A DNA stretch of 64,000 nt from Actinomycetes bacterium (GTDB taxonomy: Bacteria > Actinomycetota > Acidimicrobiia > Spongiisociales > JAHEDJ01): the NCBI GenBank assembly GCA_024641245.1, contig JAHEDK010000002.1, forward strand, positions 167,136-231,135. The letters run 5' to 3'. This document shows, piece by piece, positions 37,670 to 61,799 of this stretch (the stretch's first letter is position 1; each line of letters opens with the position of its first letter). The position numbers and the translations under genes are program-made. Below the pieces are notes generated by a model. That model did no database searches. It had not been told where the DNA came from and saw only the letters and a list, made by a program, of their open reading frames with translations.

Positions 37670-37811
37670 TCAATACGAAGCACTCAACACGAGGTGCGGC
37701 GTTCGGCCCGTCGCGATTCGACACTCCGTCGGGTCGGGTTGCTACTCTCCACCGCACCCCGGCGCCGAGCCGGGAGTCGTACAGTAGGGTGTCGACGACG
37801 GAGCATCTGGT

Positions 37812-40342: not shown

Positions 40343-40865
40343 ACCAGATCAGGAAAATCCTGAGATCGTCGCCGGACAACGGGTGCTCGGGGTTGTTCCA
40401 GGCAAGCCGCCGGGCGGCGACCGCAAGGTTCTGAGCGAGCAGGAACCGGTCATGGTCTGGCCGCACCTACTCGTCCGCCACGGGGTGGCGGCGCTGGTGG
40501 TCATCGCCGTCGTTCTGGTGCTTGCCATATTCTTCGATGCCCCGCTGCGTGAGATCGCCAACCCCACGCTGACGCCCAACCCGGAAAAGGCCCCCTGGTA
40601 TTTCGCGGCGCTCCAGGAGCTGCTCTCGATGTTCCATCCGCTGGTGGCCGGTGTGCTGGTCCCGGGCGCCATCGTCCTCGGGCTCTTCGCGCTTCCGTAT
40701 GTGGATCGGACTTCGACGATCGAGCCGCGGTTCCGCAAGGTGGCGGTGGCGACGTTCACGATCTTCATGGTCGTGTGGATAGTCCTGACGGTTATCGGAT
40801 TCGCCTTCCGCGGCCCCAACTGGGGTTGGGTGTGGCCATGGCAAGAGTGGTACGGAGAGCTATGA
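40329..40865 (+). CDS. cytochrome b subunit IV-like protein, set 2 (Qo-site motif variant APWY)
   Basis: Three TM helices; NPEKAPWYFAALQELL in place of the canonical PEWY; coupled start (overlaps upstream stop). Confidence 0.8.
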   Translation: MSTPRPDQENPEIVAGQRVLGVVPGKPPGGDRKVLSEQEPVMVWPHLLVRHGVAALVVIAVVLVLAIFFDAPLREIANPTLTPNPEKAPWYFAALQELLSMFHPLVAGVLVPGAIVLGLFALPYVDRTSTIEPRFRKVAVATFTIFMVVWIVLTVIGFAFRGPNWGWVWPWQEWYGEL

Positions 40866-41368
40866 GCAACGGAATCGGTCGGAGAGAATTCCTATCCCGG
40901 GCCTGGAAGTGGGGTGCCGCCCTCATCGGTGTCGCCGGCGGTTGGACCACGTGGGATATCCTGCAGCCCCGGGTCACCGGAGGCTTTGGTGGCGTCATCA
41001 AGACCAAGGCAGCCGACACAGTGCCGGACACCAACGTCGAATCCATCCGGGCCGCCAGAACCTACCTGACGAAGATCGACGGGCAGGTTGTAGCCCTCTC
41101 CGAGAAATGCCCGCACCTCGGTTGCCGGGTGCCGTGGTGTGATTCGTCCGGACAGTTCGAGTGCCCGTGCCACGGCTCGGTCTTCAACCGGGCGGGCGAG
41201 TACCGCGCAGGGCCCGCTCCCCGCGGAATGGACCGCTACGAGTTCGAGACGATCGACGGCATCGTCTACGTAGACACCGGAGCACCGGTATCCGGGCCGG
41301 CAATCGGTGTGGAGACCCTCAACGAACCCGTACGAGGGCCATCGTGTGAGGACAGCTCCCATGGGTGA
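40862..41368 (+). CDS. Rieske [2Fe-2S] iron-sulfur subunit, set 2, Tat-exported
   Basis: RREFLSR twin-arginine signal; CPHLGC and CPCHGSVF boxes; ATGA overlap. Confidence 0.9.
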   Translation: MSNGIGRREFLSRAWKWGAALIGVAGGWTTWDILQPRVTGGFGGVIKTKAADTVPDTNVESIRAARTYLTKIDGQVVALSEKCPHLGCRVPWCDSSGQFECPCHGSVFNRAGEYRAGPAPRGMDRYEFETIDGIVYVDTGAPVSGPAIGVETLNEPVRGPSCEDSSHG

Positions 41369-41825
41369 GCGTCCGGTTGACCAGGAACTCGAACAGTCGA
41401 CCGTCAGATGGATGCAGGCCGGACTGGCCCTGATGGTCGTCCTGGTGCTGGCGTTTCCCGCCTACCGGCTCCTCGAACCTACCAACCGCGAAGAAGCACG
41501 CGACCTCTTGACGGAAGAACTCGCCGTCCAGGGCGAAGAGCTATTCGCGGGGCAGTGCGCCTCCTGTCACGGCGAAAAGGGGCTGAATGGACCGATCGGT
41601 CCGTCGCTCAACTCGAAGCAGTTCCTGGAGGCGGCCACCGACAGCCAGATCATCAGCCTCGTCTCGGTCGGCGTCCCGGGCTCTCAGATGGGCGCCTACT
41701 CGATCGACTTCGGAGGCCCACTGACACTCGAGCAAATCACCGGCATCGCAACCTATCTGCGCTCGCTGGAGAAAGACGCCCCGGACAATCCTGACTGGCG
41801 AGCAGTAGTAACGCCGGGGAGCTAG
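41361..41825 (+). CDS. membrane-anchored monohaem class I cytochrome c
   Basis: N-terminal TM helix; single CASCHG haem motif with downstream Met ligand region; start overlaps Rieske stop. Confidence 0.75.
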   Translation: MGERPVDQELEQSTVRWMQAGLALMVVLVLAFPAYRLLEPTNREEARDLLTEELAVQGEELFAGQCASCHGEKGLNGPIGPSLNSKQFLEAATDSQIISLVSVGVPGSQMGAYSIDFGGPLTLEQITGIATYLRSLEKDAPDNPDWRAVVTPGS

Positions 41826-41948: not shown

Positions 41949-42371
41949 CTACGCGTCCGTCGGGACCTCGTAGGGGTGCCCTTCGTCCTCGGGCGCTTGG
42001 TACTGCTCGTCGTGTTTGACGACCAGCTGGTCGCTGCGGAAGACGTCACCGTCCCAGGCGCCTTCGACGATCGCACCGACGCCTTCGCGGAACAGTTCCG
42101 GTGGGGCTCCCTGGTGCACGATGTGCACTTCATGGGCACCGTCGGACACGGTGAACTCGACTCCATCCGAGGTGGCAACCAGTGTCCCGACTTCGACCTG
42201 ACCGCCGAGCCGGAACCGCTCACCATCGGGGAACTGAGCCCTCTGCTCGATAGCTTCGTTGGGGGTCAAGTAGTAGACGAGGTTCTCGCCGAGGCTGAGA
42301 AACACCATCCATCCGATGATCACAACGATCGCTCCGATGGCGGGAAGTACGAACCAGCGATATCGAGTCAT
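41949..42371 (-). CDS. ccmE: cytochrome c maturation haem chaperone CcmE
   Basis: N-terminal anchor, OB-fold, haem-binding His in LVVKHDEQYQAP. Confidence 0.9.
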   Translation of the reverse strand: MTRYRWFVLPAIGAIVVIIGWMVFLSLGENLVYYLTPNEAIEQRAQFPDGERFRLGGQVEVGTLVATSDGVEFTVSDGAHEVHIVHQGAPPELFREGVGAIVEGAWDGDVFRSDQLVVKHDEQYQAPEDEGHPYEVPTDA

Positions 42372-42372
42372 G

Positions 42373-42486
42373 TCAGCCCTCCACCCGGCGGCGGACGCTG
42401 CGCAGGCGCACAGTCAAGAACACCGCATATCCGATCATGAAGCCGTACACCACCGTGTAGGCAAAAACGACCCATCCGTTAGACAT
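42373..42486 (-). CDS. ccmD: haem exporter protein CcmD (37 aa)
   Basis: Unannotated small ORF MSNGWVVFAYTVVYGFMIGYAVFLTVRLRSVRRRVEG between ccmC and ccmE; single TM plus basic tail as in CcmD; overlaps ccmC stop and abuts ccmE start. Confidence 0.6.
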   Translation of the reverse strand: MSNGWVVFAYTVVYGFMIGYAVFLTVRLRSVRRRVEG

Positions 42487-43204
42487 CTCGCACCTTCTCG
42501 AGGTTGGGAGCCGTGATGGCGGCACCGGCGGGCGTGGCATCAGCGGCGGCGGATTGTTCTTCGAGTTGTTCCTCGCCCCTGGCGATGGCCGTCTTGACGC
42601 TCATGAAGGCGAGATAGACCACGGTGAACGCTCCAACGTTGCTGAGCAACGCCAGCAGGATCTCTCCATCGATCGGAGAATCCGGTCGCACCACCGTGAT
42701 CCCCTGGTGCAACGTGCGAACGATGATCACCGAAACGTAGGACAGCGGCACGAGGAAGAAGGCCACGATGCCCAGCACCGCGGATCTCGTCGCCCGCATG
42801 GCCGGGTCGGGAATGCTGCGGCGCAAAGCCAGGTAACCGAGGTAGACGAAGAACATGAGGGCCGTCGTCATCATGCGGGCATCGCCCCAGTCCCAGAACG
42901 TCCCCCACACCGGGTAACCCCAGATCATGCCGGTCATGAGCGCCAGCGCGGTGAAGAACACGCCGACCGAGACGCTGGACTCGGCGATTCGATCGTAAAC
43001 GGGCTTGCGTCTCGCCAGCCACAGGATCGAGGCGGCGAACGTCACAAGAAACGAGAGGTAGGCAAGCCACGCCGAAGGTACGTGCACGTACATGATGCGG
43101 GTGTAGTCGCCCTGCAACTGATCGAGCGGCGCCTGGCCACCGAAGTAGAAGCCGACCAGCACCGCTGCCAGTGCGATCAACCCGAGTATTCGATGTCTAT
43201 TCAA
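42479..43204 (-). CDS. ccmC: haem exporter / haem lyase subunit CcmC
   Basis: WGTFWDWGD (WWD domain) motif and 6 TM helices. Confidence 0.9.
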   Translation of the reverse strand: MNRHRILGLIALAAVLVGFYFGGQAPLDQLQGDYTRIMYVHVPSAWLAYLSFLVTFAASILWLARRKPVYDRIAESSVSVGVFFTALALMTGMIWGYPVWGTFWDWGDARMMTTALMFFVYLGYLALRRSIPDPAMRATRSAVLGIVAFFLVPLSYVSVIIVRTLHQGITVVRPDSPIDGEILLALLSNVGAFTVVYLAFMSVKTAIARGEEQLEEQSAAADATPAGAAITAPNLEKVRDV

Positions 43205-43881
43205 CGTGAGGCCTCCTCGAGGAATCGGGCGGTCAGCACACCTACCACTGCCAGCCCGAGTACCACGGCAAGTAGCAGAAGGATGGGAGTGAGGATACTT
43301 GACTTCTGAGCCAACGCTTCATACGTCTGTGATGCTCCGACGAGCAGCGGCAACGCCAGCGGTGCCACCAGCAGCGGTGCCAGCGTGTTACGAGAGCGCA
43401 GACCGGCCGTGATACCGGAGGCGAGCGTACCGATGAGCGCCAGGCCGACGGCCATCAGCAGAAGGACCAAAATCAGGATCGCCCACCCCTCTACCGGGTC
43501 CGGGTTGTAGAGGATGATCGTGGCGGGCGCAAGCACTCCTTCGAACACGAGCAACAGGAGGACGCTCGCCACAACCCTGCCCGCGAACTGCGCGGCCGGG
43601 TCCACGCCGAGCAACACCATCATCTCGCGATTGGCCGAACTCTCTGTGGCCGACTGGCGGAACGTGACCAGCATCCCGAACAGCAGGGTCACGACCCAGA
43701 ACATGCCCGGTCCGATCGAGGCGATGAGTGGACGGTCGGTCCCGATCGCCAGCGGGATGAGCAGCAGCGCAACCGCTCCAAACGGGATCGTGATGTTCAG
43801 GACCTCGCCGGTCCGTCCTTCGACCCGCAGATCCTTCAACCCGATCTCATATGCCTGGCCCCAGAACGACGGACCGCTCAT
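43201..43881 (-). CDS. ccmB: haem exporter membrane protein CcmB
   Basis: CcmB-type 6-TM ABC permease; 4-nt overlaps with ccmC and ccmA. Confidence 0.85.
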   Translation of the reverse strand: MSGPSFWGQAYEIGLKDLRVEGRTGEVLNITIPFGAVALLLIPLAIGTDRPLIASIGPGMFWVVTLLFGMLVTFRQSATESSANREMMVLLGVDPAAQFAGRVVASVLLLLVFEGVLAPATIILYNPDPVEGWAILILVLLLMAVGLALIGTLASGITAGLRSRNTLAPLLVAPLALPLLVGASQTYEALAQKSSILTPILLLLAVVLGLAVVGVLTARFLEEASR

Positions 43882-44534
43882 GATGAGCTCCCCGCGATCA
43901 CGATCCCACCCGTCAGCTCATAGGTCGATTGCACCAGCGGCAGCATGCGATCGAGTTCGTGGGACACGAAGACGGCGGCGCCACCACGGGAACGGACGTT
44001 CTCGACAACTGCGTCGACGAGTTGTCCGGCCTCTCGATCTAGTCCGGCGTGGGCCTCATCGAGCAGCAGTAGGTCGGGCCTGGTGAGAATCACCCTGGCG
44101 AACTCAACTCGCCGCTGCATACCATGCGACGACTGCTCCGCCCGCCGGTGCTTCGCCCCACCCAGCCCGACCACGTCGAGCATCTCATCTACCCGCTCGT
44201 CAGTGTGGCCCGACAACCGGGCGACGAAGGCGAGATTCTCACGCAGCGTCAACTGCGGGTAGAGCGCCGGTTGATGGCCGATCAGCGCGATCCGGCGCCG
44301 GATCGCAAACGCCGTCGCTTCGCCCATCTCGGTGCCGAACACCGCCACCGAGCCCTCCGTCGGTCGCAGCAACGTGGCCAGCACCCGGAGCAGCGTCGAC
44401 TTTCCCGAACCATTCGGCCCAACGATCCCGGCTGCCTCCCCGGACGGTACCGCCAGCTCCACGCCCTTCAATACCGGCACCCGGCCGTATCGAACGGCGA
44501 CGCCGTGCAGCTGCACTGTGGGAGGTGTGGACAT
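43878..44534 (-). CDS. ccmA: haem ABC exporter ATPase CcmA
   Basis: Walker A GPNGSGKST, signature and Walker B LLLDEA; start set at internal ATG (MSTPPTVQLHGV). Confidence 0.85.
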   Translation of the reverse strand: MSTPPTVQLHGVAVRYGRVPVLKGVELAVPSGEAAGIVGPNGSGKSTLLRVLATLLRPTEGSVAVFGTEMGEATAFAIRRRIALIGHQPALYPQLTLRENLAFVARLSGHTDERVDEMLDVVGLGGAKHRRAEQSSHGMQRRVEFARVILTRPDLLLLDEAHAGLDREAGQLVDAVVENVRSRGGAAVFVSHELDRMLPLVQSTYELTGGIVIAGSSS

Positions 44535-44804
44535 GACAGACGAGTGTACGCACGCAGCTTCGGGCGCCGAAACGCGACCCCGGATAAACACCACCCGTTC
44601 TCTCCCTTTCGCCACCTTTTCAGGGTTTTATGGCGGGTTTCAACCCAGGCAGGGCCCAAGTGCCCCAGGGCGCGAGGACTTTGCGCTGTTGGTGTGTTTC
44701 CGATATACCCGTATCCTCTGCAATGAGAAACGGGGGACCGACCCTGAATCGCCGCCGGAACGGCTCATTCACACGGTGATCCCCATGGAGGAAGGCACAG
44801 CAAA

Positions 44805-46844
44805 ATGAACGCGACCCTCGGGTATCTCTCGATCCTGGCCGCAGTGGTGGGAGCGCTCGGTATCACCGTGCGGGGTTTCATCGCGATGCGTGATCCGGAG
44901 CGGGCGAACAAAGGGTATCTGGGGTTGCCCGTCATACTGTTCGTGTCCGGAGCCGTCGGCGCAATGTTCTTCCTGGAACTCGGGCTTCTCACCGACGACT
45001 TCTCGATCAAGTACATCGCCAACAACTCCTCGACCACCACCCCGTTTCTCTTCAAGGTCGCCTCTGGATGGGCATCGCTGGAGGGATCGATCGTTTTGTG
45101 GGGTCTGGTCCTGGCCGGCTTCACATTCGCCGTATACGCACGGTTCTTCAGAAGCGAAAGCGGCGACCGGCTCGCAGCAGGGGCTCTGGCGATCATGGGG
45201 CTCATCTCTCTTTACTTCTTCGGGCTAATGGCCACAATCTCCGACCCATTCGCTCGCTGCGTGCAAACGTTCAGCGACGGTGTCGGTTGTGTGACCGGCG
45301 AGAACGCGATCCTCGCCAACGTGATCTCCTCCCCGATCGAAGGGCGCGGCGCCAACGCACTGCTCCAGAACCATTGGCTCATGGCCCTGCATCCACCAAC
45401 GCTCTACGTCGGCTATGTCGGGCTCAGCGTCCCCTTTGCGTTTGCCATCTCGGCGCTCCTCCTCAAAACCACCGGGGCGGCCTGGCTGACCCGGACCCGC
45501 AACTGGACGGTGTTCGCCTGGATGTTCCTCACTGCCGGCATTGTTCTCGGTGGGCTCTGGTCGTATGAGGTGCTCGGCTGGGGCGGCTACTGGGCATGGG
45601 ACCCGGTTGAGAACGCCTCCTTCATGCCGTGGCTGGTCGCGACTGCCTTCTTGCACTCGTCTGTCGTGCAGGCGAGGCGCGGGATGCTGCAGTCGTGGAA
45701 CTTCGTCCTCGTCATCACGACCTTCGCGCTCACGATTCTCGGCACCTTCTTGACCCGCTCCGGCGTAATCGTTTCGGTTCACAGCTTCTCGCAGTCCGCC
45801 ATCGGGCCTGCCCTGTTGATCTTCCTGGTGGTCGTGCTGCTGGGATCGCTCGGGCTCTTCGCGTCAAGGGCTCACACCATCGCCTCTTCTCCCCGGCTCG
45901 ATTCACTCAGCAGCCGGGAAGGGGTGTTCTTGTTCAACAACCTTCTGCTCACCGTGTTCGCGTTCATGGTGCTGACAGGGACGCTCTACCCGCTCTTCGT
46001 TGAGGCGTTCTCCGACTCGACGGTGGGCGTCGGTCGTCCGTTCTTCGATCGCATGGCGATCCCGTTGTCCTTCCTGTTGCTGCTGGCGATGGGCATCGGA
46101 CCGGTCTCGCCCTACCGGGCGGCGAGCGCCCGCGTCGTGTGGGAGCGGATTCGCTGGCCCGTCCGGGTTGCCCTCGGCGCCGCCGCGCTGGCCGTCGTGT
46201 TCGGCTATCGGAACTCGTTCCTGCTGCTCGGTGTTCTGGCCGCCGTGTTCGTCATGGGCGTGATCATCCGCAACCTCTACGACGCCGCCCGGACCAGGGC
46301 AGACAAACTCGGTATCGGACGGAGACAGGCCGCCGCCCGGATCATGCGCGGCGACCCGCACTATTGGGGTGGCCAGATCTCCCACCTGGGCGTTGCGATA
46401 CTGGCACTGGGCATCGCCTTCTCAGCCAACCTGTCGGAGACCGCCACGGTGACCATCGACGCCGGAGATACGGTCAACTTCGCCGGCTTCGAGGTGACCT
46501 ACGAACAGGAGTTCAGCCGCCAGGAACCGGGCCGGTTCGTCACCGGAGCAGACATCACGGTGACCCGGGACGGGTCGGTCGTCGGTACGTACCAGCCACG
46601 GCTGAATCAGTACGGCAACACGCGGGAATCGATCGCCACCCCAGAGGTCGACACCATGTTCTCAGGCGACCTGTACCTCTCGCTCCGCAGCATCGATCCT
46701 TCATCCGTGACCCTCGAGGTCTATTGGTTCCCGTTCATCTGGCTCATCTGGGTTGGAGGCTTCCTGGCGGCCGCCGCCGGGGTCTGGGGATTCGCGGTCA
46801 AGAAGCCCGAACGTTCGGTTGCACGGGACGACACGCGTGTCTGA
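44805..46844 (+). CDS. ccmF: cytochrome c-type biogenesis protein CcmF
   Basis: WGGYWAWDPVEN WWD motif; ~15 TM; RBS ggaggaagg. Confidence 0.9.
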   Translation: MNATLGYLSILAAVVGALGITVRGFIAMRDPERANKGYLGLPVILFVSGAVGAMFFLELGLLTDDFSIKYIANNSSTTTPFLFKVASGWASLEGSIVLWGLVLAGFTFAVYARFFRSESGDRLAAGALAIMGLISLYFFGLMATISDPFARCVQTFSDGVGCVTGENAILANVISSPIEGRGANALLQNHWLMALHPPTLYVGYVGLSVPFAFAISALLLKTTGAAWLTRTRNWTVFAWMFLTAGIVLGGLWSYEVLGWGGYWAWDPVENASFMPWLVATAFLHSSVVQARRGMLQSWNFVLVITTFALTILGTFLTRSGVIVSVHSFSQSAIGPALLIFLVVVLLGSLGLFASRAHTIASSPRLDSLSSREGVFLFNNLLLTVFAFMVLTGTLYPLFVEAFSDSTVGVGRPFFDRMAIPLSFLLLLAMGIGPVSPYRAASARVVWERIRWPVRVALGAAALAVVFGYRNSFLLLGVLAAVFVMGVIIRNLYDAARTRADKLGIGRRQAAARIMRGDPHYWGGQISHLGVAILALGIAFSANLSETATVTIDAGDTVNFAGFEVTYEQEFSRQEPGRFVTGADITVTRDGSVVGTYQPRLNQYGNTRESIATPEVDTMFSGDLYLSLRSIDPSSVTLEVYWFPFIWLIWVGGFLAAAAGVWGFAVKKPERSVARDDTRV

Positions 46845-47250
46845 TTCGATTCGCAAGATCGCGGCGGCGGTGGTGACTATCGGCCTGGCGGTTGTCGTCG
46901 TAATCGGCCTCATCCAGGGCGACCGAACCGATGAAGATCGCGCCCGGTCCATCGGCTCCAGAGTGAAGTGTCCCGTTTGCCAGGGCGTAGCCATTGCCGA
47001 TTCTCCTTCGGAAACTGCCAGAGCGATGATGGACGTCGTCGAAGAGCGAATCGCAGACGGGTGGTCGGACAGACAGATCATCGACTACTTCGCGGAGCGC
47101 TACACCGACAGCATCGTCATCGACCCGCCCTTCAGCGGGAATACGCTGCTCGTCTGGCTGCTGCCGATCCTGGCAGTAGTCGCAGGCTTCTTCATGATCT
47201 TCTCCCGGCGCAAGACGCCGGTGCCAAAACCCGATGAGGTGAAACAGTGA
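46837..47250 (+). CDS. ccmH: cytochrome c-type biogenesis protein CcmH (CxxC)
   Basis: VKCPVCQG motif, C-terminal TM; GTG start overlapping ccmF stop. Confidence 0.75.
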   Translation: MSDSIRKIAAAVVTIGLAVVVVIGLIQGDRTDEDRARSIGSRVKCPVCQGVAIADSPSETARAMMDVVEERIADGWSDRQIIDYFAERYTDSIVIDPPFSGNTLLVWLLPILAVVAGFFMIFSRRKTPVPKPDEVKQ

Positions 47251-48080
47251 GCAACTTCAACCAGGAGTCATACGATCGGGCGGTCGCCCGCAAGGAACTG
47301 GCCTTGACCGATCTCGAAGAGCTGGCCCAGCAGGTGGACGACGGTGAGATCGACGCGCCCACCGCGGCAGGACTCCGGAGCGGCTACGAGGCTGAACTCG
47401 GCGCGGCCGAAGCCGAACTGGCCAGACTCGGTCCACCGCCCACTCCCAAGAAGTCGCCCGGTCAAGCGTCGACCAAACGTGCGCCGAGCGAGAACGGACG
47501 GCCGGCCCGGAAGTCGAGCGACTTGAATACTCGTCTGCTGGTCGGCGCCGGCATTCTCATCGTCGCCCTCGTCGTGATTCTCATCTCGGTCCAGAATTCG
47601 GCGCAGCCGGATCCGGCCGCGATGGGCACCCAGGTGACGACGGCAAGCGGCGAGGACCCCTGCGCGGAGCTGGCCGACGCGTTGACCAGTCACTCCGACA
47701 ACGGCTTTCGTCTCGCACTGGCCGACTGCTACGCAGACGTCGGAAACGCCATGTCGGCGATCGAGCACTACCGGGCCGTCGCCGATGCCGAAGGTGCCGC
47801 CGACGGCGAGGTCGCACGGGCAAACGTGGGACTCGGCTTCCTCAACCTTCAAATCGGTGAGCTCGCCAAGGCCGCCGACTACATGCGCGTGGCGCTCGAG
47901 CGCGACGCCGCCAACGTCGAAGCTCAATACTTCCTGGGCATGATGCTCGTCTACGACCTCGGCGATCCGGCCGCAGGAGCCCCATATCTCGAGTCGGTAC
48001 TCGCAACTCCCGACCTGCCGGAGACGGTGATCCTCGAAATCCAGGCAGCGCTCGATGTCGCGGCGGGCGAGGGCTCATGA
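47247..48080 (+). CDS. CcmI/CycH-like TPR protein
   Basis: N-terminal coiled-coil, single TM, C-terminal TPR repeats; translationally coupled between ccmH and ccmG. Confidence 0.55.
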   Translation: MSNFNQESYDRAVARKELALTDLEELAQQVDDGEIDAPTAAGLRSGYEAELGAAEAELARLGPPPTPKKSPGQASTKRAPSENGRPARKSSDLNTRLLVGAGILIVALVVILISVQNSAQPDPAAMGTQVTTASGEDPCAELADALTSHSDNGFRLALADCYADVGNAMSAIEHYRAVADAEGAADGEVARANVGLGFLNLQIGELAKAADYMRVALERDAANVEAQYFLGMMLVYDLGDPAAGAPYLESVLATPDLPETVILEIQAALDVAAGEGS

Positions 48081-48685
48081 CCAACACGGACCTCGCCGTC
48101 GAGCCGACCCCGGAAGCACCGCAACGCAACCTCAAACTGTGGATAACGACCGGCCTGGCGGCGGTGGCCTTCATCGCGCTCGCCCTCGTGTTCAACAGCC
48201 GGTTTGGCGTTGACCCCCGGGTCGTCGAATCCCCGCTCATCGGGCAACCCGCCCCGAACCTCGAACTCGAGGTTCTCGAGCAGGACGCCATCTCTGGCCC
48301 CATGGCAATGTCGGAATTTCGCGGCAGCGTGGTCGTGGTCAACTTCTTCGCCTCTTGGTGCATCCCCTCCTGTCGCGATGAGCACCCCCATCTCACCGCG
48401 GCCGCCGCCGACTACGCCGACCGCGGCGTCCGGTTCGTTGGAATAGCCACCAGCGACACACCCGAAGACACACGCGGGTTCCTCGACGCGCTCGGGTGGG
48501 GAACCAACTACACCTACCTCAACGATCCCGATGCCAGGGCAGGAGTCGAGTTCGGCACATTCGGAGTTCCCGAAACGTTCGTGATCGACCGGGAGGGGCT
48601 CGTCACGCACAAGTTCACGGGGCCGGTCACATACGATGAACTGGTCGTCGAGTTGGAGAAGGCGTTGACCGAGACGGGTTCATGA
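48077..48685 (+). CDS. thiol:disulfide interchange protein CcmG/DsbE-like (thioredoxin fold) with atypical WCIPSC (CxxxC) active site
   Basis: N-terminal anchor and TlpA/ResA-like fold; active site reads W-C-I-P-S-C, checked in the DNA (tgg tgc atc ccc tcc tgt). Confidence 0.75.
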   Translation: MTNTDLAVEPTPEAPQRNLKLWITTGLAAVAFIALALVFNSRFGVDPRVVESPLIGQPAPNLELEVLEQDAISGPMAMSEFRGSVVVVNFFASWCIPSCRDEHPHLTAAAADYADRGVRFVGIATSDTPEDTRGFLDALGWGTNYTYLNDPDARAGVEFGTFGVPETFVIDREGLVTHKFTGPVTYDELVVELEKALTETGS

Positions 48686-51796: not shown

Positions 51797-52720
51797 TCAA
51801 GCAGCCTGGTGGATCGCGGCCAGGACTTCCGCAACAACGGAATCCGGCCGGCCAATCAGGTCCCACCAGGTGTATCGAAGCGTTCTCCAGCCGAGTAGCT
51901 CTGTCTGGTTCTGGATCACGCGGTCTCTGCGAAACGTGGGGCGATCCATGTGAAACGCTTCGGAGTCGAGTTCGATCCGCAGGCGGTGCTCGATGAAGGC
52001 GAAGTCGGCCCGGCATACGAACGTCCCGTCAGGGTTTCTGATCTCCACCTGTGGCGTCGGTTGCGGCGTACGGAGCCCCCACGACCGGCGAAACAGATCT
52101 TCCAGTTCGCTCTCGGTGACGCCATCCCAGTGGAGCCGCTGCTCGACGAACGGCCGTATGACCCCGACTCCCCTGCGGCCGCGCCTGGCGACCCGGCCGA
52201 CCAGCGCGGCAACACCTTCGAGCGTAAAGCTCCGAGTTCTCAGACCTCTATCGAGAGCCGACTCGACCAGCCACGGCGCGCTGGCGCCCAGATCGACGAC
52301 CGTTCGGACCGGAGTGGTCACCGGGATACCCGAGACCTCCGCCGAGTCCTCGGGAGCGAGATCGGTCGACTCGTGAACGACGAACTCCTGATGCGCCCGA
52401 TTCCAGCGGGGCATCACTACCTCGATGCGCGGAGGCTTGCGATCAACCAGGCCGTGCAGGAATGCAGCGGTCTGGTGGGAGGCCAGCGCCAGATCGCCTG
52501 CGGTCGTGGTCGCGATGAGCACGGCCTGATGCCAGTCGCGCGGCACGGCGGGGAAAACGTACGTGCGGTAGGCCACCCGCTCGAGCACTCCGCGGGACGT
52601 CAAACCTTTCAACTGATCTGAGCTGAGCCCTGCCTCAATGACAGCAGCACGATCGACTACGCCGTGTCGCAAGGCGGCCCTCTGAGTGAGAATCTGCAAC
52701 GGTGTCATGCCCAACACCAT
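51797..52720 (-). CDS. DUF559 endonuclease-domain protein (AbiEi-like N-terminal HTH + Vsr/RE-like fold)
   Basis: C-terminal DUF559 motifs (VEIRNPDGTFVCRADFAFIEHRLRIELDSEAFH) of the widely amplified actinobacterial family; start set at MVLGMT. Confidence 0.7.
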   Translation of the reverse strand: MVLGMTPLQILTQRAALRHGVVDRAAVIEAGLSSDQLKGLTSRGVLERVAYRTYVFPAVPRDWHQAVLIATTTAGDLALASHQTAAFLHGLVDRKPPRIEVVMPRWNRAHQEFVVHESTDLAPEDSAEVSGIPVTTPVRTVVDLGASAPWLVESALDRGLRTRSFTLEGVAALVGRVARRGRRGVGVIRPFVEQRLHWDGVTESELEDLFRRSWGLRTPQPTPQVEIRNPDGTFVCRADFAFIEHRLRIELDSEAFHMDRPTFRRDRVIQNQTELLGWRTLRYTWWDLIGRPDSVVAEVLAAIHQAA

Positions 52721-52754
52721 CAAGGTTGGGTGTGACAAATCCCGAACCCAGTGA

Positions 52755-52871
52755 ACTTGCGTCAGAAACGGGCGCCGGCCGCCCCAAACTGACGCAAGAA
52801 AGGGATAGGGGCGCCACCTTCTCGTTCTTGCGTCAGTGTTCCGAGCAACGGGCCCAGAAGTGACGCAAGAA
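52755..52871. repeat. palindromic repeat element, tandem copies C and D
   Basis: acttgcgtcag...ctgacgcaagaa (52755-52800) and ttcttgcgtcag...gtgacgcaagaa (52825-52871), each with a 23-nt GC-rich spacer. Confidence 0.55.
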
Positions 52872-52939
52872 TGAGGAGAGACAGAGAAGTGGGGAGCCTT
52901 TCGGCTCCCCACTTCGGGTGTTCGTTAAGCGACTCTTGT

Positions 52940-55860: not shown

Positions 55861-55936
55861 GATTGGGCCACATGGGAGAGAGGCGAGGGCCCGCAATGGT
55901 TTGTGAATGCCGTGAGTGGTCGAGAGGGGGCCCACG

Positions 55937-56362
55937 GTGTTGATCACCCGCGAGGTCGACTACGCCGTGCGCTGTGTTCTCGACGTAGCCCGCACCGGGC
56001 ACACCTCCACCGGAGCAGTCGCCGAACGGGCCGGGATACCCCCATCGATCCTCGGGCGCATCGTGGCGGCTGTATCGAAAGCCGGCATACTCACTACCAG
56101 ACGAGGAGTCAAAGGCGGCATCGATCTTGCGCGCGATCCAAGCGAGATCAGCCTGCTTGACGTCATAGAGGCGGTGCAAGGTCCGCTCTTCGTCAACATC
56201 TGCTGCGAGCATCCCGAAACCTGTGACGCCGCTACCAACTGTCCGATCCGACCCGTCTGCGAGGACGCCTTCGACGAGCTGAGACGGGTCTTCTCGGTGA
56301 CCTACGACACATTGCTCAACGGCGGCCACGTTCCTCTCCGCCCGTTCGTCCAAGAGGAGTAG
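55937..56362 (+). CDS. Rrf2 family transcriptional regulator (IscR/NsrR-like, three-Cys cluster)
   Basis: N-terminal wHTH (TREVDYAVRCVLDVA...STGAVAERAGIPPSILGRIV) and Cys cluster CCEHPETC...C...C; GTG start after GAGAGGGGG. Confidence 0.8.
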   Translation: MLITREVDYAVRCVLDVARTGHTSTGAVAERAGIPPSILGRIVAAVSKAGILTTRRGVKGGIDLARDPSEISLLDVIEAVQGPLFVNICCEHPETCDAATNCPIRPVCEDAFDELRRVFSVTYDTLLNGGHVPLRPFVQEE

Positions 56363-56423: not shown

Positions 56424-57296
56424 ATGAAGCGACGAACCCAGCTTTACGCGCTCGGCGGACTCCTCATTGTTGTTTCGTTTGCCGCCTGGCGGTTGACGGA
56501 CGATCCGGCAATCGAACCACCGCTGATCCCGATCGCAGCAACCGCCGTGGTCGCAGACTCCGACTTCGACGCGTGCCTCGAGTGCCACGACGACATCGAG
56601 CAATCCCTCCAAGCCGGACTGGTGCAACTCATCGGATTTCGACACGAAGAGCACTTCTCGAATTCCGGCGACGTCGGTTGCGGCAACTGCCACGGTCTCG
56701 ACACGCACGATCGCACCCCGCCGCAGGCACCGACCATGGAGGATTGTTTTTCGTGCCACCTCGACGCCGGGCCGGCTGCCGAGTTGCCGTGTCTCCGCTG
56801 TCACGACAACGCCACTGTGCCACCGCCGCAGAGCCACTTCACCTCAGAGTGGCGCGACGTTCACGGCTCCGGCGCCCTGCTCAGCCAGTCGCTGTGCGAG
56901 ACCTGCCACTCGCGACAAGATTTCTGCACGGCGTGCCACGGTGTCGATATTCCGCATCCAGACGGATGGACCGGCTATCCACACGCACGTGCGACGTTCG
57001 ATTCGGGCATCGAGTCGTGTGCACGCTGCCACGAGCGCGGTCCGGAACTGACGGCTCGCGACGAATGTGACGGCTGCCACCATCCGCAGAACCCCGCAGA
57101 ACCCATCTGGAAGGATGCTCACCCAGAGGTGGTCCGAAGCCAGGGTGGCTCGACGTGCTTCGAGTGCCACGACCCCAACACATGCGCCACATGTCACACA
57201 TCGGGAGTTGAAGACTTCTCCGCCGATCTCAACCGGCTCGAAGTGCCCGGCCCACCAAAGGTCACGGAGTCACCGCCCGAGGACGGTGACTCGTGA
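56424..57296 (+). CDS. membrane-anchored decahaem c-type cytochrome
   Basis: N-terminal TM; ten CxxCH motifs (CLECH, CGNCH, CFSCH, CLRCH, CETCH, CTACH, CARCH, CDGCH, CFECH, CATCH). Confidence 0.85.
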   Translation: MKRRTQLYALGGLLIVVSFAAWRLTDDPAIEPPLIPIAATAVVADSDFDACLECHDDIEQSLQAGLVQLIGFRHEEHFSNSGDVGCGNCHGLDTHDRTPPQAPTMEDCFSCHLDAGPAAELPCLRCHDNATVPPPQSHFTSEWRDVHGSGALLSQSLCETCHSRQDFCTACHGVDIPHPDGWTGYPHARATFDSGIESCARCHERGPELTARDECDGCHHPQNPAEPIWKDAHPEVVRSQGGSTCFECHDPNTCATCHTSGVEDFSADLNRLEVPGPPKVTESPPEDGDS

Positions 57297-58309
57297 GTCT
57301 GTCCCCGGTACCCATCGGACCGGCGGGACGCTCGCCCGGAATCCCATTCCCGGCACCACCGACCGCCCTCCGGCGATTCTCAACGCAACCACCGCCACCT
57401 CCCGACGGCGAGCCATCTCGCCGTCCCGAGCTTCGTGCCCTCGGTGACGGGGCGGGCTCGGGAAGGGACAACAGGGCATCGGAGCCACGCGGGTCTCGCT
57501 GGCTTCGGCGCCTCGTCATCATCGTCGCGACCGTCGGCGCCCTCGTATTCGTCGCCTCCTGGAGCTACGCCTCGTCATCGCGCAACATGTGCGGAAGCTG
57601 TCATAGCGTCTCGGCGGCTGCAGAATCCGCCGGTGATTCGGTGCACGCAGATATCCCGTGCCTCGCCTGCCACAGGCAAGCGGGCATCGTCGGAGCGTTC
57701 ACCTACCTCCCTGTGCTGCTGCGCGAGTCTGTTCACGAGCTGACTGGACTCTCTATCGCCGAAGGAGTGCTCGACCCCGTCGGATGTGGTTCTTGTCACT
57801 CTTTCCTATCCGACGCGGCGGCGCGAGGCGATCATCCGGACGAGACAGCAGAATGCTCGTCCTGCCACGGCAACGTAGCCCACCCGGGAGCCGGGACGGC
57901 TCCGGAAGGGGACGGCCATCCGTCCGGGTTCTTCGCTTTCCACGGCCGGGATTCCGTCGCTTCGCCCGGATCATGCGCAGAATGCCATAAGAACGACTTC
58001 TGCTCGGCCTGCCACTTCCGCACGGAGTATCCGCATCCGGAAACCTGGACGTCGCTCCATGGTCCGGCGTCAATCGAAGGCGGCCCCGCTGCTTGTGTGA
58101 TGTGCCACGAGCCCACGTACTGTTCGAGCTGTCACGGCGCCGACATCCCCCATCCGGACAACTGGTTCGAGATCCATCATCGGGCAACCGACCCGGCAGT
58201 CGGGTCGGCCTGCCTATCGTGCCATGCAGCCTCCGAGTGCTCCTCCTGCCACGTCCGGCACTCAGTTCACAACGAGCAAGGGCTCTACCAGTGGGACCTC
58301 AAGCCATGA
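57293..58309 (+). CDS. membrane-anchored decahaem c-type cytochrome with NapC/NirT/NrfH-like N-terminus
   Basis: Pro-rich cytoplasmic tail, single TM then CGSCHS immediately after it (NapC/NrfH-like topology); ten CxxCH in total; start overlaps upstream stop. Confidence 0.8.
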   Translation: MSLSPVPIGPAGRSPGIPFPAPPTALRRFSTQPPPPPDGEPSRRPELRALGDGAGSGRDNRASEPRGSRWLRRLVIIVATVGALVFVASWSYASSSRNMCGSCHSVSAAAESAGDSVHADIPCLACHRQAGIVGAFTYLPVLLRESVHELTGLSIAEGVLDPVGCGSCHSFLSDAAARGDHPDETAECSSCHGNVAHPGAGTAPEGDGHPSGFFAFHGRDSVASPGSCAECHKNDFCSACHFRTEYPHPETWTSLHGPASIEGGPAACVMCHEPTYCSSCHGADIPHPDNWFEIHHRATDPAVGSACLSCHAASECSSCHVRHSVHNEQGLYQWDLKP

Positions 58310-59157
58310 AAGGCATCCGGGTGCTCATGACTGTGGTCCTCACTCTCGTACTCGCTGAGGTGACGCTCGTGGCCTTCGTGACCTTCTCCGAGGATGCCCG
58401 GGGCGCGGTCACCGACGCGTGGGCCAAGACCGTGAACGCGTGGGCCGGCTCGGAGGAGCGGGCAGGCAATTTCGAGCTGCTCCTGTCGTCTGCAGACGAG
58501 TTCGCTGCTGAATGGGTCCAGCCATTGTGGAGCGCGCCGGAGGCGGCTCCGGCCGGCACCGGATTCTCCGAATGCGTGACCTGCCACACGGATTACGCCG
58601 AACGTCGCCTGTTCACCGGCGTCTTCATGAATCATCCACTGCATTCGGAGTTGGGAATCGCGTGCGCCGAATGCCACACCGACGTTGCGCATCCCCTCCC
58701 TCTCCCTCCGGCCGAAGAGACTTGTGCAGGGTGCCACAATCAAGTCGAACGAGACGGCCCGGCCTCCGACTGTAGCTATTGCCACAAACCTGGCTCGCTG
58801 GCGCACTATCAGTCACTTGGCGTTCCCGACGGAGCCGCCAACTGCAGCACCTGCCACCTTCCGGATTCGTTCGGGCACACCGATCAGCACGCCTTGACGG
58901 TTACTCCAAGCTTCGATGGAACCGATTCCGCCGTCTGCCTCAACTGCCATCAGGCGGCCGCCTGCGCTCGATGCCATGATTCCTCCCACCCGGCCGACTG
59001 GGTATCCCTTCACGGCGCAGAGGTCCAGGACGCCGGTACCGGCGCCGGCTCCTGCGCGGCGTGTCATTCGACAAACTGGTGCGCTGGAGCCTGCCACCTG
59101 AGTGGAACTCTCCAGGGCGGCAGGCTGCTCCCCCTACCGATCGGAGACGATGACTGA
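58306..59157 (+). CDS. membrane-anchored multihaem c-type cytochrome (8 CxxCH + 1 CxxxCH)
   Basis: N-terminal TM; CVTCH, CAECH, CAGCH, CSYCH, CSTCH, CLNCH, CARCH, CAACH plus WCAGACH (CX3CH); ATGA-type overlap with upstream gene. Confidence 0.8.
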   Translation: MKGIRVLMTVVLTLVLAEVTLVAFVTFSEDARGAVTDAWAKTVNAWAGSEERAGNFELLLSSADEFAAEWVQPLWSAPEAAPAGTGFSECVTCHTDYAERRLFTGVFMNHPLHSELGIACAECHTDVAHPLPLPPAEETCAGCHNQVERDGPASDCSYCHKPGSLAHYQSLGVPDGAANCSTCHLPDSFGHTDQHALTVTPSFDGTDSAVCLNCHQAAACARCHDSSHPADWVSLHGAEVQDAGTGAGSCAACHSTNWCAGACHLSGTLQGGRLLPLPIGDDD

Positions 59158-59819
59158 TGGCGAATCGACGAACCTTGCTCGTGCTCGTGGGCACGATCGG
59201 TGCGGTGGCAGCTGCTGCGGCCATCTGGATCGTAGGCGGCGCCGATCCGGATCCACTCATCGCCGAGGTGGATGGGATTCCGATCCGGCAATCACAAGCG
59301 GACTCGCGGATTGAAGGCATCGCCTCGATTCACGGCGACATCACGACGACGCTCGGTAGCGAGTGGAGAGCCACCGTGCTGCAGTCCCTCGTCGATGACG
59401 TGATCGTTCAGATCGAAGCCGACCGGAGATCCCTCGAACCGACCGATGCCGATCTCGAACAAGCAGTCGCCGATACCAAGGCAATGGTGGGTACCGATGC
59501 GGACTGGGAGATCTGGCTTACGGACCAGGGGCTCGACGACGAGGAAGTTGAGCGGCGCCTGACCACCCAGATCAGGACCAACCGTGTGTACGACGCGGTC
59601 ACCGCCGATGTGACTATCGCGCGCACCGACCTCGAGGCCTACTACGAGGCGAACCTCGACCAGTTCACCGTCGACGGCGCCGTCAGAGAACTCTCCGAGG
59701 TCGAAGAGCAAATCAAGGTGGCCGTTGAAAGCATGATGCGAGATCGCGTCTACGCCGAGTGGATCGACGCCCGCCGGGCCGAAGTCATCCTGGAGGTGGT
59801 GCACGATGACTGGCGATAG
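59157..59819 (+). CDS. SurA N-terminal-domain-like periplasmic chaperone (membrane anchored)
   Basis: N-terminal TM; SurA_N/PpiD-like helical domain; start overlaps upstream TGA. Confidence 0.5.
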   Translation: MANRRTLLVLVGTIGAVAAAAAIWIVGGADPDPLIAEVDGIPIRQSQADSRIEGIASIHGDITTTLGSEWRATVLQSLVDDVIVQIEADRRSLEPTDADLEQAVADTKAMVGTDADWEIWLTDQGLDDEEVERRLTTQIRTNRVYDAVTADVTIARTDLEAYYEANLDQFTVDGAVRELSEVEEQIKVAVESMMRDRVYAEWIDARRAEVILEVVHDDWR

Positions 59820-60480
59820 GCAACCCGCCGACAGGGAGCAGAATGTCAACGTCCTCCTGGTCATTGTCGGCTTGTTGACGCTCCTCGTGGTCGGGCTCGG
59901 TGCAGCCGTTGTCTTCATCCAACTCAACTCCGATCCGGTCCCCCAGACGGTTGCCGAACGGGACCTCAATCTCTGGCTGCGCCTCGCCGACGACAATCCT
60001 GATGCCGTATGGGCACAGGTCGGCCTGGGGCAAGCACACCTGGCAGGCCAGGATATGGAGGCCGCCCGGGCTGCCTTCGCAGCGGCCCTGGCCATCGATC
60101 CGGCTTCGCCGGAAGCACTGTTCCAGATGGGGCTCCTCGTCCGAGCAGAGGATCCGAATCTGGCCGTCGATTACCTTCGGCGAGCCGTCGAAGCCGCAAC
60201 GGGAGCAGACAAGGCGCGCCCGAACCTGGCGCTCGGAGATCTTCTGATGGAGCGAGGCGACTGGGAAGCGGCGCGGCTGGCCTATGAGTCGTCCATAGCC
60301 AATCTCCCCTTCCTATTGCCCGCGCACCTGGGACTTGCCCGGTCCCTCGAAGCGCTCGGTGACTCCGACGGTGCCCTTGCCGCCTACCTCCAGGCCTCGG
60401 CCTTCGATCCGACGGATCCCGAGATCAAGGAGGCGATCACTCGCCTCGGAGGCACCCAACCCGAGACAACGAACCCGTAG
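59806..60480 (+). CDS. membrane-anchored TPR-repeat protein
   Basis: Single TM followed by 3-4 TPR-like repeats. Confidence 0.6.
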   Translation: MTGDRQPADREQNVNVLLVIVGLLTLLVVGLGAAVVFIQLNSDPVPQTVAERDLNLWLRLADDNPDAVWAQVGLGQAHLAGQDMEAARAAFAAALAIDPASPEALFQMGLLVRAEDPNLAVDYLRRAVEAATGADKARPNLALGDLLMERGDWEAARLAYESSIANLPFLLPAHLGLARSLEALGDSDGALAAYLQASAFDPTDPEIKEAITRLGGTQPETTNP

Positions 60481-60488
60481 GAGCACCG

Positions 60489-61655
60489 ATGGACAGACCA
60501 CCACCAGGACCGATTGCGCACCAGCCACCGCCGTCTCCAGCGCCGGAATCGGGCAATGCCACCCAGACCACTCGCCGCCTAATGATCGGCATGATCATCG
60601 TGCTGTCACTCGCTGCCATCGGCCTGCTCATCCTCCTCCTGTTGCTCCTTCGATCCGGGGAGGAGCCCCAGTCGCTGGCGATGCCCGACGATTGCCCGCT
60701 CGACATCTCCCGCTCGGTATACGGATACGGAGCGGAGTTGGATCAGTTGCTCAACAAGCCGCTGGCCGTCACATTCGACGGCAGTGAGAACCTCTGGGTC
60801 TCCGATACCGGGAACGGGCGGGTCCTGGCACTCGACACCGATGGGAACCTTCTCAGAATCATCGGCACCGAGGAGGGGGCCGGCCGAATGTTCAGCCCGT
60901 ATGGCCTCGCCTTCGATGAGACCTACCAACGGCTCTACGTTGCCGACTGGACAGCCCGATTCGTGTTCATCTATTCGCCGGACGGGCGGTACATCGAGCG
61001 CATACCCGCAGATGACCAGGATTTGACGATCTTCGGCGAAGCCGGGTTCACGCCGTTCCATGTCGAGGTATGGGGGGCGCAGATAATCGTCTCCAGCAAC
61101 GATGGGCTGTATTTCTTCGACCGGGCGGGGCATGTCACCGACCACTGGGGCCAACGTGGGGCTGAGGCCGGGGAGTTTGCGTTCCCCGATGCCTTCGACA
61201 TCGACCGCACCGCCGGAACGTTCTACGTCGCGGACACTCTCAATCGTCGGGTCGTCGCACTCGATTCCGCAGGCGAAGTCCTGTGGATCTCCGGCCGGCC
61301 AGACCAGGCAGGGGCAATCACCGGGTTCTGGCAGCTCCCGCGGTCTATCACCGTCGGGCAGGACGGAAATGTGTACGTCGTCGACACATTCAGGGCGCAG
61401 GAGAAGTGCTCCGGGATGGGACACGTTGTGGTGCTCGATCCCGGCGGCGAACTCGTCTCCGAATTTGGAGCGGCCGGCAGCCAGGAATGGGCGTTCAGTT
61501 TCCCGGAGAAGCTCGCAATCGGTCCAAACGGTACATTCGGGCTCGCTGACCGAGAAAAGGGTCGCGTGGTGGTGTTCGACGTTGGACAGCTTCCACCGGC
61601 CGACGAGTCCGAGGCGGACAAGTACCTGCAATCGTTCACCCGCTTCGATGATTGA
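60489..61655 (+). CDS. membrane-anchored NHL-repeat (six-bladed beta-propeller) protein
   Basis: Pro-rich N-tail, TM, then repeated NHL-type blades (VSDTGNGRVLALDTDGN, YVADTLNRRVVALDSAGE, YVVDTF...). Confidence 0.75.
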   Translation: MDRPPPGPIAHQPPPSPAPESGNATQTTRRLMIGMIIVLSLAAIGLLILLLLLLRSGEEPQSLAMPDDCPLDISRSVYGYGAELDQLLNKPLAVTFDGSENLWVSDTGNGRVLALDTDGNLLRIIGTEEGAGRMFSPYGLAFDETYQRLYVADWTARFVFIYSPDGRYIERIPADDQDLTIFGEAGFTPFHVEVWGAQIIVSSNDGLYFFDRAGHVTDHWGQRGAEAGEFAFPDAFDIDRTAGTFYVADTLNRRVVALDSAGEVLWISGRPDQAGAITGFWQLPRSITVGQDGNVYVVDTFRAQEKCSGMGHVVVLDPGGELVSEFGAAGSQEWAFSFPEKLAIGPNGTFGLADREKGRVVVFDVGQLPPADESEADKYLQSFTRFDD

Positions 61656-61799
61656 GGGTGACGGACCCGGGCCGAAGGCCCAATCATCAAAGGTGTTCCT
61701 GACCCTTTAGTAAGTGACTCAGGTCCCTGGAGCGGCCGGCAGGTCATGCGATAGCTTGACGAGGAGAGATCGGACCAACAACCGATCCCGGAGAGATCG

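Follow-up and report, generated by a model that had tools for sequence, protein, structure and literature searches.

What do three genes without a single haem-binding motif contribute to an operon whose other products are all multihaem cytochromes? The question is raised by a stretch of 64,000 nucleotides from an Actinomycetes bacterium (GenBank assembly GCA_024641245.1, contig JAHEDK010000002.1, positions 167,136 to 231,135 of the forward strand; hereafter the window, in whose own numbering positions are given), where genes for a SurA-like protein, a TPR protein and an NHL beta-propeller protein, together referred to as the trio, stand directly behind the genes of three multihaem cytochromes (MHC1 to MHC3). 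An earlier sequence-only reading of the window had proposed that the trio are membrane-anchored partners of the cytochromes, which might assemble or organise a cytochrome conduit through the wall. Here, we found that trio and cytochromes form a conserved, translationally coupled co-operon, to which the trio contributes interaction modules that carry no cofactor, face outward and are tethered to the membrane. In our view a functional bond between the trio and its cytochromes is highly probable, and from sequence and structural models we propose, with a probability of roughly 60%, that it acts as a dedicated extracytoplasmic, membrane-tethered folding and assembly set for the three co-encoded cytochromes.

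The trio genes (Table 1) received identical gene calls in four independent short-read assemblies of the same organism, in one of which (L001) the call for MHC3 was also compared and matches the window. Their junctions are tight: the stop codon of MHC3 and the start codon of the SurA-like gene overlap by 1 nt (TGATG at 59155-59159), the SurA-like gene runs 14 nt into the TPR gene, whose ATG at 59806 is preceded at about 10 nt by GGAGG, and only 8 nt separate the TPR from the NHL gene, with GGAG 5 nt before the ATG at 60489. Each trio gene has its own Shine-Dalgarno site. Further upstream, MHC1 and MHC2 as well as MHC2 and MHC3 overlap by 4 nt each. On account of these overlaps and short junctions, 56424-61655 is regarded as a single, tightly packed six-gene block. 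A scan of its plus strand revealed no promoter- or terminator-like sites above shuffle expectation; the sole promoter-like match (60832-60859, 9/12) lies within the NHL gene, against a chance expectation of 1.2 such matches. The gap behind the NHL gene is the probable operon boundary, and the NHL gene is taken as the 3' end of the unit because the genes beyond it vary between loci. RNA folding of the gap gave no significant signal (z = -0.27), and scan and folding alone cannot define the end of the operon.

Each trio protein carries one N-terminal hydrophobic segment by hydropathy, which AlphaFold modelled as a helix. For the TPR and NHL proteins, the charged N-termini of 15-35 residues argue for uncleaved type II anchors. 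None of the three contains a CXXCH motif, and no invariant Cys was found in the alignments of the three families. Taken together, the identities given to the trio by the sequence-only reading were borne out by Pfam matches at exactly the gene limits it had drawn, and so were a single N-terminal hydrophobic helix in each protein and the overlapping or short junctions. Its statement that the three genes follow the cytochromes is correct as far as it goes, and needs to be extended in that trio and cytochromes belong to one unit of six genes, the trio as its fixed 3' half, and that the cytochromes are membrane-anchored as well. The scan also gave no sign of a separate promoter for the trio, which that reading had named as a mark of an unrelated downstream operon.

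Table 1. Features of the window: the six-gene unit, its regulator and flanks, and the wider cytochrome island
Feature	Coordinates	Strand	Remarks
MHC1, 10-haem c-type cytochrome, 290 aa	56424..57296	+	First gene of the unit; 10 CXXCH, cytochrome Pfam match, N-terminal hydrophobic helix
MHC2, 10-haem cytochrome, NapC/NirT/NrfH-like	57293..58309	+	First CXXCH directly after transmembrane (TM) helix (74-92)
MHC3, 8-haem cytochrome, 283 aa	58306..59157	+	8 CXXCH, N-terminal TM helix
SurA/PrsA/PpiD-type chaperone core, predicted membrane-tethered, 220 aa	59157..59819	+	PF13624, PDB profile, AlphaFold2 (AF2), Foldseek; hydrophobic segment 8-26
TPR protein, predicted membrane-tethered, 224 aa	59806..60480	+	One TM helix (18-36) and about 4-5 outward TPR repeats
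NHL beta-propeller, six-bladed, predicted membrane-tethered, 388 aa	60489..61655	+	Last gene of the unit; hydrophobic segment 36-54
Intergenic gap, 144 nt	61656..61799	+	3' of the NHL gene; short GC hairpin GGGCCGAAGGCCC, no T-run
Rrf2-family transcriptional regulator	55916..56362	+	PF02082 at 95.8 bits; 62 nt upstream of the unit
9-haem cytochrome, C-terminal TM helix	61800-62909	+	Variable neighbour, outside the conserved unit
Cytochrome b561-type membrane protein, C-terminal PSCyt1 domains	62902 to beyond the window	+	Outside the conserved unit
Two Rieske/cytochrome b sets	34581-41825		One with an 866-aa cytochrome b fusion
Ccm system I, complete	41949-48685	CcmE, C, B, A minus; CcmF, CcmH, TM+TPR-like, thioredoxin-like plus	
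AbiEi-antitoxin-like gene	51797-52912	-	Between a 723-aa cytochrome and a divergent cytochrome pair

The strongest evidence for a bond between trio and cytochromes comes from the conservation of gene order. The succession of a 10-haem cytochrome, a NapC-like 10-haem cytochrome, an 8-haem cytochrome, a SurA core, a TPR protein and an NHL protein recurs in about 40 independent loci, nearly all of which are labelled Actinomycetota as far as sampled. All 10 independent genome or contig loci with enough upstream DNA show the complete series MHC1-MHC2-MHC3-SurA-TPR-NHL; in every one of these (10/10) the MHC3 and SurA-like genes overlap by 4 nt, while the SurA/TPR overlap varies from 4 to 26 nt and the TPR/NHL gap from 4 to 42 nt. 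Orthologues of MHC1 and MHC2 occupy the same positions in related loci, the TPR gene is kept between its SurA-like and NHL neighbours, and the same six-gene order is found in L022, L023 and L069. In L024, the trio lies behind two cytochromes, with a 105-aa minus-strand gene between. An unbiased metagenome scan seeded with MHC3 only yielded 44 loci representing 32 lineages at 90% amino acid identity, and where enough downstream DNA was available, a SurA-like gene was present in 35/35, a TPR gene in 17 of 21 and an NHL gene in 17 of 20. Seeding with the NHL protein retrieved multihaem cytochromes within 5 kb in every locus with upstream sequence, and a scan of a genome collection with strict patterns gave 12 loci. 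The linkage between trio and cytochromes is far beyond chance. Thus, the co-occurrence of NHL and TPR genes with multihaem cytochromes that the sequence-only reading had anticipated is real, order and overlaps recurring in unrelated contigs, and the trio is not missing from orthologous cytochrome islands, which would have spoken against it.

In several genomes, the unit forms the tail of a longer string comprising Rrf2, HemA, a NapC-like protein, Rieske, cytochrome b, cytochrome b-C/cytochrome c, multihaem cytochromes, SurA, TPR and NHL. Haem-biosynthesis genes flank this longer string, and Ccm genes also adjoin the unit in other genomes; in L024 the Rieske/cytochrome b genes are placed after the unit instead. 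Two metagenome-assembled genomes (locus-tag prefixes GWP04 and GXP34) harbour two NHL paralogues each (P0005/P0013, P0008/P0010). The GXP34 copy inspected is the reduced module L005 described below, and the GWP04 copy inspected is that of L024, directly upstream of Rieske/cytochrome b.

The SurA-like protein provides the clearest hint at what the trio may do. It matches SurA_N_3 (PF13624) at 33.6 bits (cut-off 27.2), and a profile built from 16 family members retrieved LIC12922 (7.5e-11), SurA (1e-5), Cj1289, PrsA and trigger factor from the PDB, with separate aligned stretches for the N domain and the C-terminal tail of LIC12922 and SurA. The AF2 model (pLDDT 90.6) is all-helical except for short strands, and its C-terminal core element, consisting of helix 179-209 and strand 212-214, reaches a pLDDT of about 98. 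Foldseek placed SurA core chains from BAM-SurA complexes first (TMt 0.73-0.77), followed by Cj1289, LIC12922 and PrsA, with the PpiD-YfgM structure 8zht as a weak match. Both the SurA-type N domain and the C-terminal helix and strand are therefore present, and chaperone activity is predicted from sequence and model. However, profile searches gave no Rotamase match in this short protein, in which a loop of about 10 residues occupies the site where the parvulin domain is inserted in SurA and PrsA. Hence the sequence-only label of a SurA-like chaperone stands for the core fold but does not extend to a peptidyl-prolyl isomerase domain, of which there is none at all. In E. coli, the N plus C core of SurA reportedly keeps its chaperone function without the parvulin domains (Behrens et al. 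2001).

To delimit the family, exhaustive HMMER searches of 1.84 billion representatives were used; a single-sequence homologue search recovered only 5 proteins owing to a word-index limit, and alignment-based searches were employed instead. About 45 clusters at E<=1e-30 form a clade whose members nearly all measure 215-268 aa and are matched in one stretch. Of the other matches listed, nearly all have E-values no better than 1e-28. Most of them are about 300-350 aa long and align in two separate segments, a pattern that an intervening parvulin domain would produce. The closest relative with a parvulin domain that was inspected resides in a housekeeping context (MazG, enolase), and the cytochrome-linked clade is therefore a specialised offshoot. 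The SurA-like protein is thus a member of a small, specialised, isomerase-less branch of the SurA/PrsA family. His59, Trp70, Trp202 and Trp219 are invariant in this parvulin-less clade. In the alignment shown, the position of His59 is not occupied by His in either of the two relatives of known structure, LIC12922 and E. coli SurA. His59 could be a clade-specific functional site, and the four residues together could mark a site for handling haem or apocytochrome.

The TPR protein is far less distinctive. It is matched by generic TPR Pfam families at 40-56 bits, its repeats are near-consensus, and the best hits of its PDB profile were consensus-designed TPR proteins and OGT; these solved relatives are uninformative on a specific function. 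Two more specific assignments were tried, the first of which was discarded as the main reading. As the CcmI of the island, the protein would be expected to match PF23914 (TPR_CcmH_CycH), which scored 24 bits in the window protein against a Pfam cut-off of 42, although 11 of 12 relatives match at E<=0.01 (best 2.2e-9); a separate TM+TPR-like gene of 277 aa (47247-48080) already occupies the CcmI position after CcmH and is not a close paralogue of the TPR protein of the trio (E 0.017). CcmI, CycH and NrfG are, moreover, encoded with ccmF/ccmH or nrf genes, and the TPR gene of the unit is not. Membership in the YfgM family is not supported: PF09976 (TPR_21, YfgM-type) gave no match at E<=0.01 in the window protein and weak matches in 7 of 12 family members (best 2.3e-5), which score below generic TPR models. 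In both the TPR and NHL families the TM helix ends in a conserved LRP motif (KLRP, WLLRP), from which the window copies deviate (LNS and LRS, respectively).

For the NHL protein, the repeats found by profile and the closed six-bladed fold agree. It matches PF01436 at 59.5 bits (cut-off 20), and its PDB profile retrieved Thin, TRIM71, TRIM2 and PknD at 1e-22 to 1e-38. The AF2 model (pLDDT 88.8) shows a strand pattern consistent with six four-stranded blades, and Foldseek aligned it to the six-bladed NHL domains of TRIM2, Thin and TRIM71 at TMt 0.83-0.88, the PknD sensor also being found. A cytoplasmic N-terminus of about 30 aa is followed by one long TM helix, a short linker and the propeller. 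Its identity of 42-60%, against 33-47% for the cytochromes, is the highest in the unit, and no invariant Cys or His occurs in its alignment. Its relatives number in the hundreds, and where a name is given it is mostly that of uncultured Actinomycetota or Actinobacteria, other or unspecific labels being few. Some members (P0119 and P0120, L022 10001-11473) possess a second, C-terminal TM helix and a low-complexity acidic or proline-rich tail; a propeller of this type would be tethered at both ends.

As to the putative clients, MHC2 is a candidate quinol dehydrogenase, since its first haem motif directly follows the helix and residues 75-134 give weak, below-cut-off matches to PF03264 (Cytochrom_NNT, 21.7 against 24.1 bits) and TIGR03153 (NrfH, 27.4 against 134.2 bits). 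With three membrane-anchored cytochromes, one of which is NapC/NrfH-like, the unit therefore looks like a quinol-linked complex of the membrane surface. Halfway along the N-terminal hydrophobic helix of MHC3 lies Glu18, which is invariant across the 11 sequences aligned (consensus LLLAExALVVxVFVSP); this suggests that the helix stays uncleaved as an anchor and makes a polar contact within the membrane. The Rrf2 gene is found upstream of the unit in most related loci, and its product is the probable regulator of the six genes.

Following from these observations, we envisage the folding and assembly set as follows. The parvulin-less SurA core, at the outer face of the membrane, would serve the cysteine-rich apocytochromes exported through Sec as holdase or foldase, both while Ccm system I attaches their 28 haems and during the folding of the cytochromes. 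The TPR protein would be the membrane-bound adaptor of the SurA core, formally like YfgM with PpiD or CcmI/NrfG with apocytochromes, and the NHL propeller might serve as a rigid platform onto which the three anchored cytochromes dock and which gives them a defined arrangement at the membrane surface. Cytochromes arranged in this manner could link the oxidation of quinol, by the NapC-like MHC2 and the neighbouring Rieske/cytochrome b and cytochrome b561 modules, to further cytochromes. The tight translational coupling implies near-stoichiometric synthesis of the parts.

Other explanations compete with this proposal to very different degrees. SurA/PrsA-like, TPR and NHL domains are each common in envelope proteins, and three general envelope-folding genes might merely adjoin the cytochromes; this is scarcely credible, however, being contradicted by the synteny, with order and overlaps kept across about 40 loci and SurA-like genes linked to MHC3 in 35/35, by the general PrsA-like relative being a different, parvulin-containing protein in a housekeeping context, and by the lack of any internal promoter or terminator signal in the block. 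An extension of the cytochrome c maturation machinery, with the TPR protein as a CcmI/CycH/NrfG-like adaptor to CcmF/H and the SurA-like protein keeping the clients unfolded, would accommodate the sub-threshold PF23914 matches of the window protein and its relatives, the Ccm system I and haem-biosynthesis genes that flank the module here and in other genomes, and the example of the Uet cluster (see below), in which a TPR protein annotated NrfG lies beside CcsA/B. We nevertheless consider it improbable, given that generic TPR models score far above PF23914, that another TM+TPR-like gene already follows CcmH, and that in all loci the TPR gene of the module is linked to MHC3, SurA and NHL and not to ccm genes. 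Still less probable is that the propeller is a ligand-binding or catalytic module served by the cytochromes, be its ligand a mineral or metal, a wall polymer or a redox-active small molecule, or be it a PAL-like enzyme: its strong conservation, including numerous invariant Asp, Arg and Trp residues, and the additional Foldseek matches to PAL lyase and to the NHL domains of NHLRC2 and SOQ1, both Trx-NHL proteins, would fit, but its top structural hits are NHL domains that bind protein or RNA, along with the PknD sensor, most of the invariant residues belong to canonical NHL blade motifs, and a metal or redox site would lack an invariant His or Cys.

The most serious rival is that the NHL protein, and perhaps the TPR protein and SurA core with it, are permanent, non-redox subunits of a membrane-anchored cytochrome supercomplex, where they would set the spatial arrangement of the haem chain or attach it to the wall, to partner complexes (Rieske/cytochrome b, cytochrome b561) or to an extracellular substrate. 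We regard this as possible, though on balance unlikely. The 4-nt overlaps and fixed order suggest stoichiometric co-production, all six proteins have an N-terminal hydrophobic helix, with the invariant Glu of MHC3 suggesting helix-helix contacts, the NHL protein surpasses the cytochromes in conservation and travels with other cytochromes where SurA and MHC1-3 are absent (L015), and roles in stabilising complexes have been proposed for NHL propellers in the literature. On the other hand, the SurA/PrsA fold has been seen only in chaperones and foldases, and MHC1-3 and SurA can occur without TPR and NHL. Several points weigh against a folding and assembly set. Coupling and NHL conservation agree equally well or better with a permanent subunit, the TPR protein is generic and bears no family-specific signature, the N-terminal helix of the SurA-like protein may be either an anchor or a cleaved signal peptide, and the function proposed for the trio derives from predicted fold and gene context only. 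Furthermore, in four loci of two lineages (L041/L042 and L053/L056) TPR and NHL genes are absent from the 5-6 kb downstream, the unit ending at the SurA-like gene with convergent ferrochelatase and HemY genes next to it; L005 is reduced to MHC-MHC1-SurA-NHL, without TPR, MHC2 and MHC3, and in L015 a TPR-NHL pair lies behind other cytochromes without a SurA-like gene. In view of these variants, the trio is not an obligatory unit.

A folding and assembly set nevertheless remains the reading we favour, and its reach should be defined. Nothing observed supports the cytochrome conduit through the wall that the sequence-only reading had envisioned, the client cytochromes being small and membrane-anchored. 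Possible, though unlikely, is a bolder version, according to which the trio would be the Gram-positive counterpart of the nanowire-assembly machinery of Geobacter, a self-contained platform required for a 28-haem wire on the membrane surface, with the SurA core as a holdase close to Sec. If true, it would mean that many-haem proteins in general need dedicated chaperone-propeller sets, and a compact set for their heterologous expression would be at hand.

The unit is embedded in a respiratory and cytochrome supercluster that takes up about 30 kb of the window. The complete Ccm system I lies about 10 kb upstream of the six genes, in a phylum that usually employs cytochrome c maturation system II, and four more multihaem cytochromes and the AbiEi-like gene, which may be an inserted mobile or defence gene, are situated between the Ccm genes and the unit. 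The two Rieske/cytochrome b sets are, we presume, reminiscent of the unusual Rieske/cytochrome b complexes of anammox bacteria. In the 866-aa protein of one of them, the C-terminal part of cytochrome b is fused to about six mono-haem cytochrome c domains and PSCyt1, and a GltD-like FAD/FeS NAD(P)H oxidoreductase gene (37812-39608) follows. Downstream of the unit, the 9-haem cytochrome and the cytochrome b561-type protein resemble a split CbcL-like quinol module as in Geobacter; homologues of this pair are found at other positions or on the opposite strand in L005 and L022. No gene for an outer-membrane channel or porin was found in related loci or between 52.9 and 64 kb of the window, where only the cytochromes, Rrf2, the trio and the cytochrome b561-type gene are encoded.

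Why such a module matters is best seen from the difficulty of its putative task. Wires of multihaem cytochromes are difficult to produce and to put together in foreign hosts. We know of no characterised cytochrome-based extracellular electron transfer (EET) system in Actinomycetota, and literature searches found nothing specific on this actinobacterial module. The trio offers a compact, sharply defined candidate for an assembly set: three small genes that share an operon with their evident clients, three small cytochromes. It also offers a conserved marker by which quinol-linked multihaem systems of uncultured Actinomycetota may be recognised. In addition, a SurA-type chaperone that is linked to cytochromes and has no isomerase domain is evidence that this domain is dispensable for such a chaperone.

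How, then, does the module compare to known systems? With the foldases SurA, PrsA, Cj1289 and LIC12922, the SurA-like protein shares the helical N domain and C-terminal helix-strand element that make up the chaperone core. Those proteins, however, contain one or two parvulin domains and are soluble periplasmic proteins or lipoproteins, whereas the SurA-like protein has a short loop instead and belongs to a small, cytochrome-linked clade. A formal parallel is the PpiD-YfgM pair at SecYEG of E. coli, in which, according to PMC9643414, a protein of SurA-like chaperone fold and a TPR-like partner receive newly translocated proteins. Both partners have an N-terminal TM segment and an outer domain, as do the SurA-like and TPR proteins by hydropathy and AF2; PpiD, in contrast, is about 620 aa long with a parvulin-like domain, and acts as a general factor that is not operon-linked to its clients.

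Among dedicated cytochrome systems, the osc (omcS-companion) and omcZ loci of Geobacter sulfurreducens likewise co-encode non-redox accessory genes with multihaem cytochromes. The prolyl-isomerase chaperone OscH has been proposed to act in folding and the beta-propeller-like OscD in morphology (Shen et al. 2025, as summarised in PMC13194489), and the prolyl isomerase of the omcZ operon was reported to be needed for expression of OmcZ in Shewanella (bioRxiv 10.64898/2026.07.18.739370). In the present unit, by comparison, the chaperone has no isomerase domain, an N-terminal helix tethers all three proteins, and the host is presumably a monoderm actinobacterium; its operon has no equivalent of the channel-like OscEFG or the protease OzpA, and its clients are small, membrane-anchored and not known to form filaments, OscH and OscD being compared here by description only. 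The Uet cluster of 'Ca. Tenderia electrophaga' and Gallionella combines the isomerase UetB, the NHL proteins UetH/I, an NrfG-like TPR protein, maturation genes and multihaem cytochromes, and thus also unites a peptidyl-prolyl isomerase or chaperone, NHL, TPR and cytochromes in one conserved block, again as judged by description only for UetB, UetH and UetI. It differs in its Gram-negative hosts, the outer-membrane beta-barrel UetC, a cupredoxin, the Ccs system (system II), a peptidyl-prolyl isomerase domain and another gene order, and the roles of its accessory proteins are putative, like those proposed here.

NHL propellers without a described SurA-like partner are known from further lineages with other cytochromes. 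In the Gram-positive Dethiobacter alkaliphilus, NHL and TPR proteins occur among the multihaem cytochromes of EET clusters (PMC10376724), and in Desulfovibrio ferrophilus the propellers of DFE_0448-0451 and DFE_0461-0465 are co-expressed with outer-surface cytochromes; in both organisms they are proposed, at the level of annotation, to stabilise or orient cytochrome complexes. The literature on Dethiobacter (PMC10376724) and several Gram-negatives therefore agrees with the sequence-only reading in that NHL and TPR proteins are recurrent partners in EET loci. Of the features that typify osc- and Uet-type clusters, the unit possesses a co-operonic non-redox chaperone and a propeller, and lacks a prolyl isomerase and a channel or porin. 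Given the missing isomerase and porin, the tethers on all three proteins, the fixed six-gene layout and the actinobacterial host, we do not count the module as a member of either the osc or the Uet system. Thus, while the association of chaperone, NHL and TPR proteins with multihaem cytochromes is a known and recurring theme, its six-gene actinobacterial form is new.

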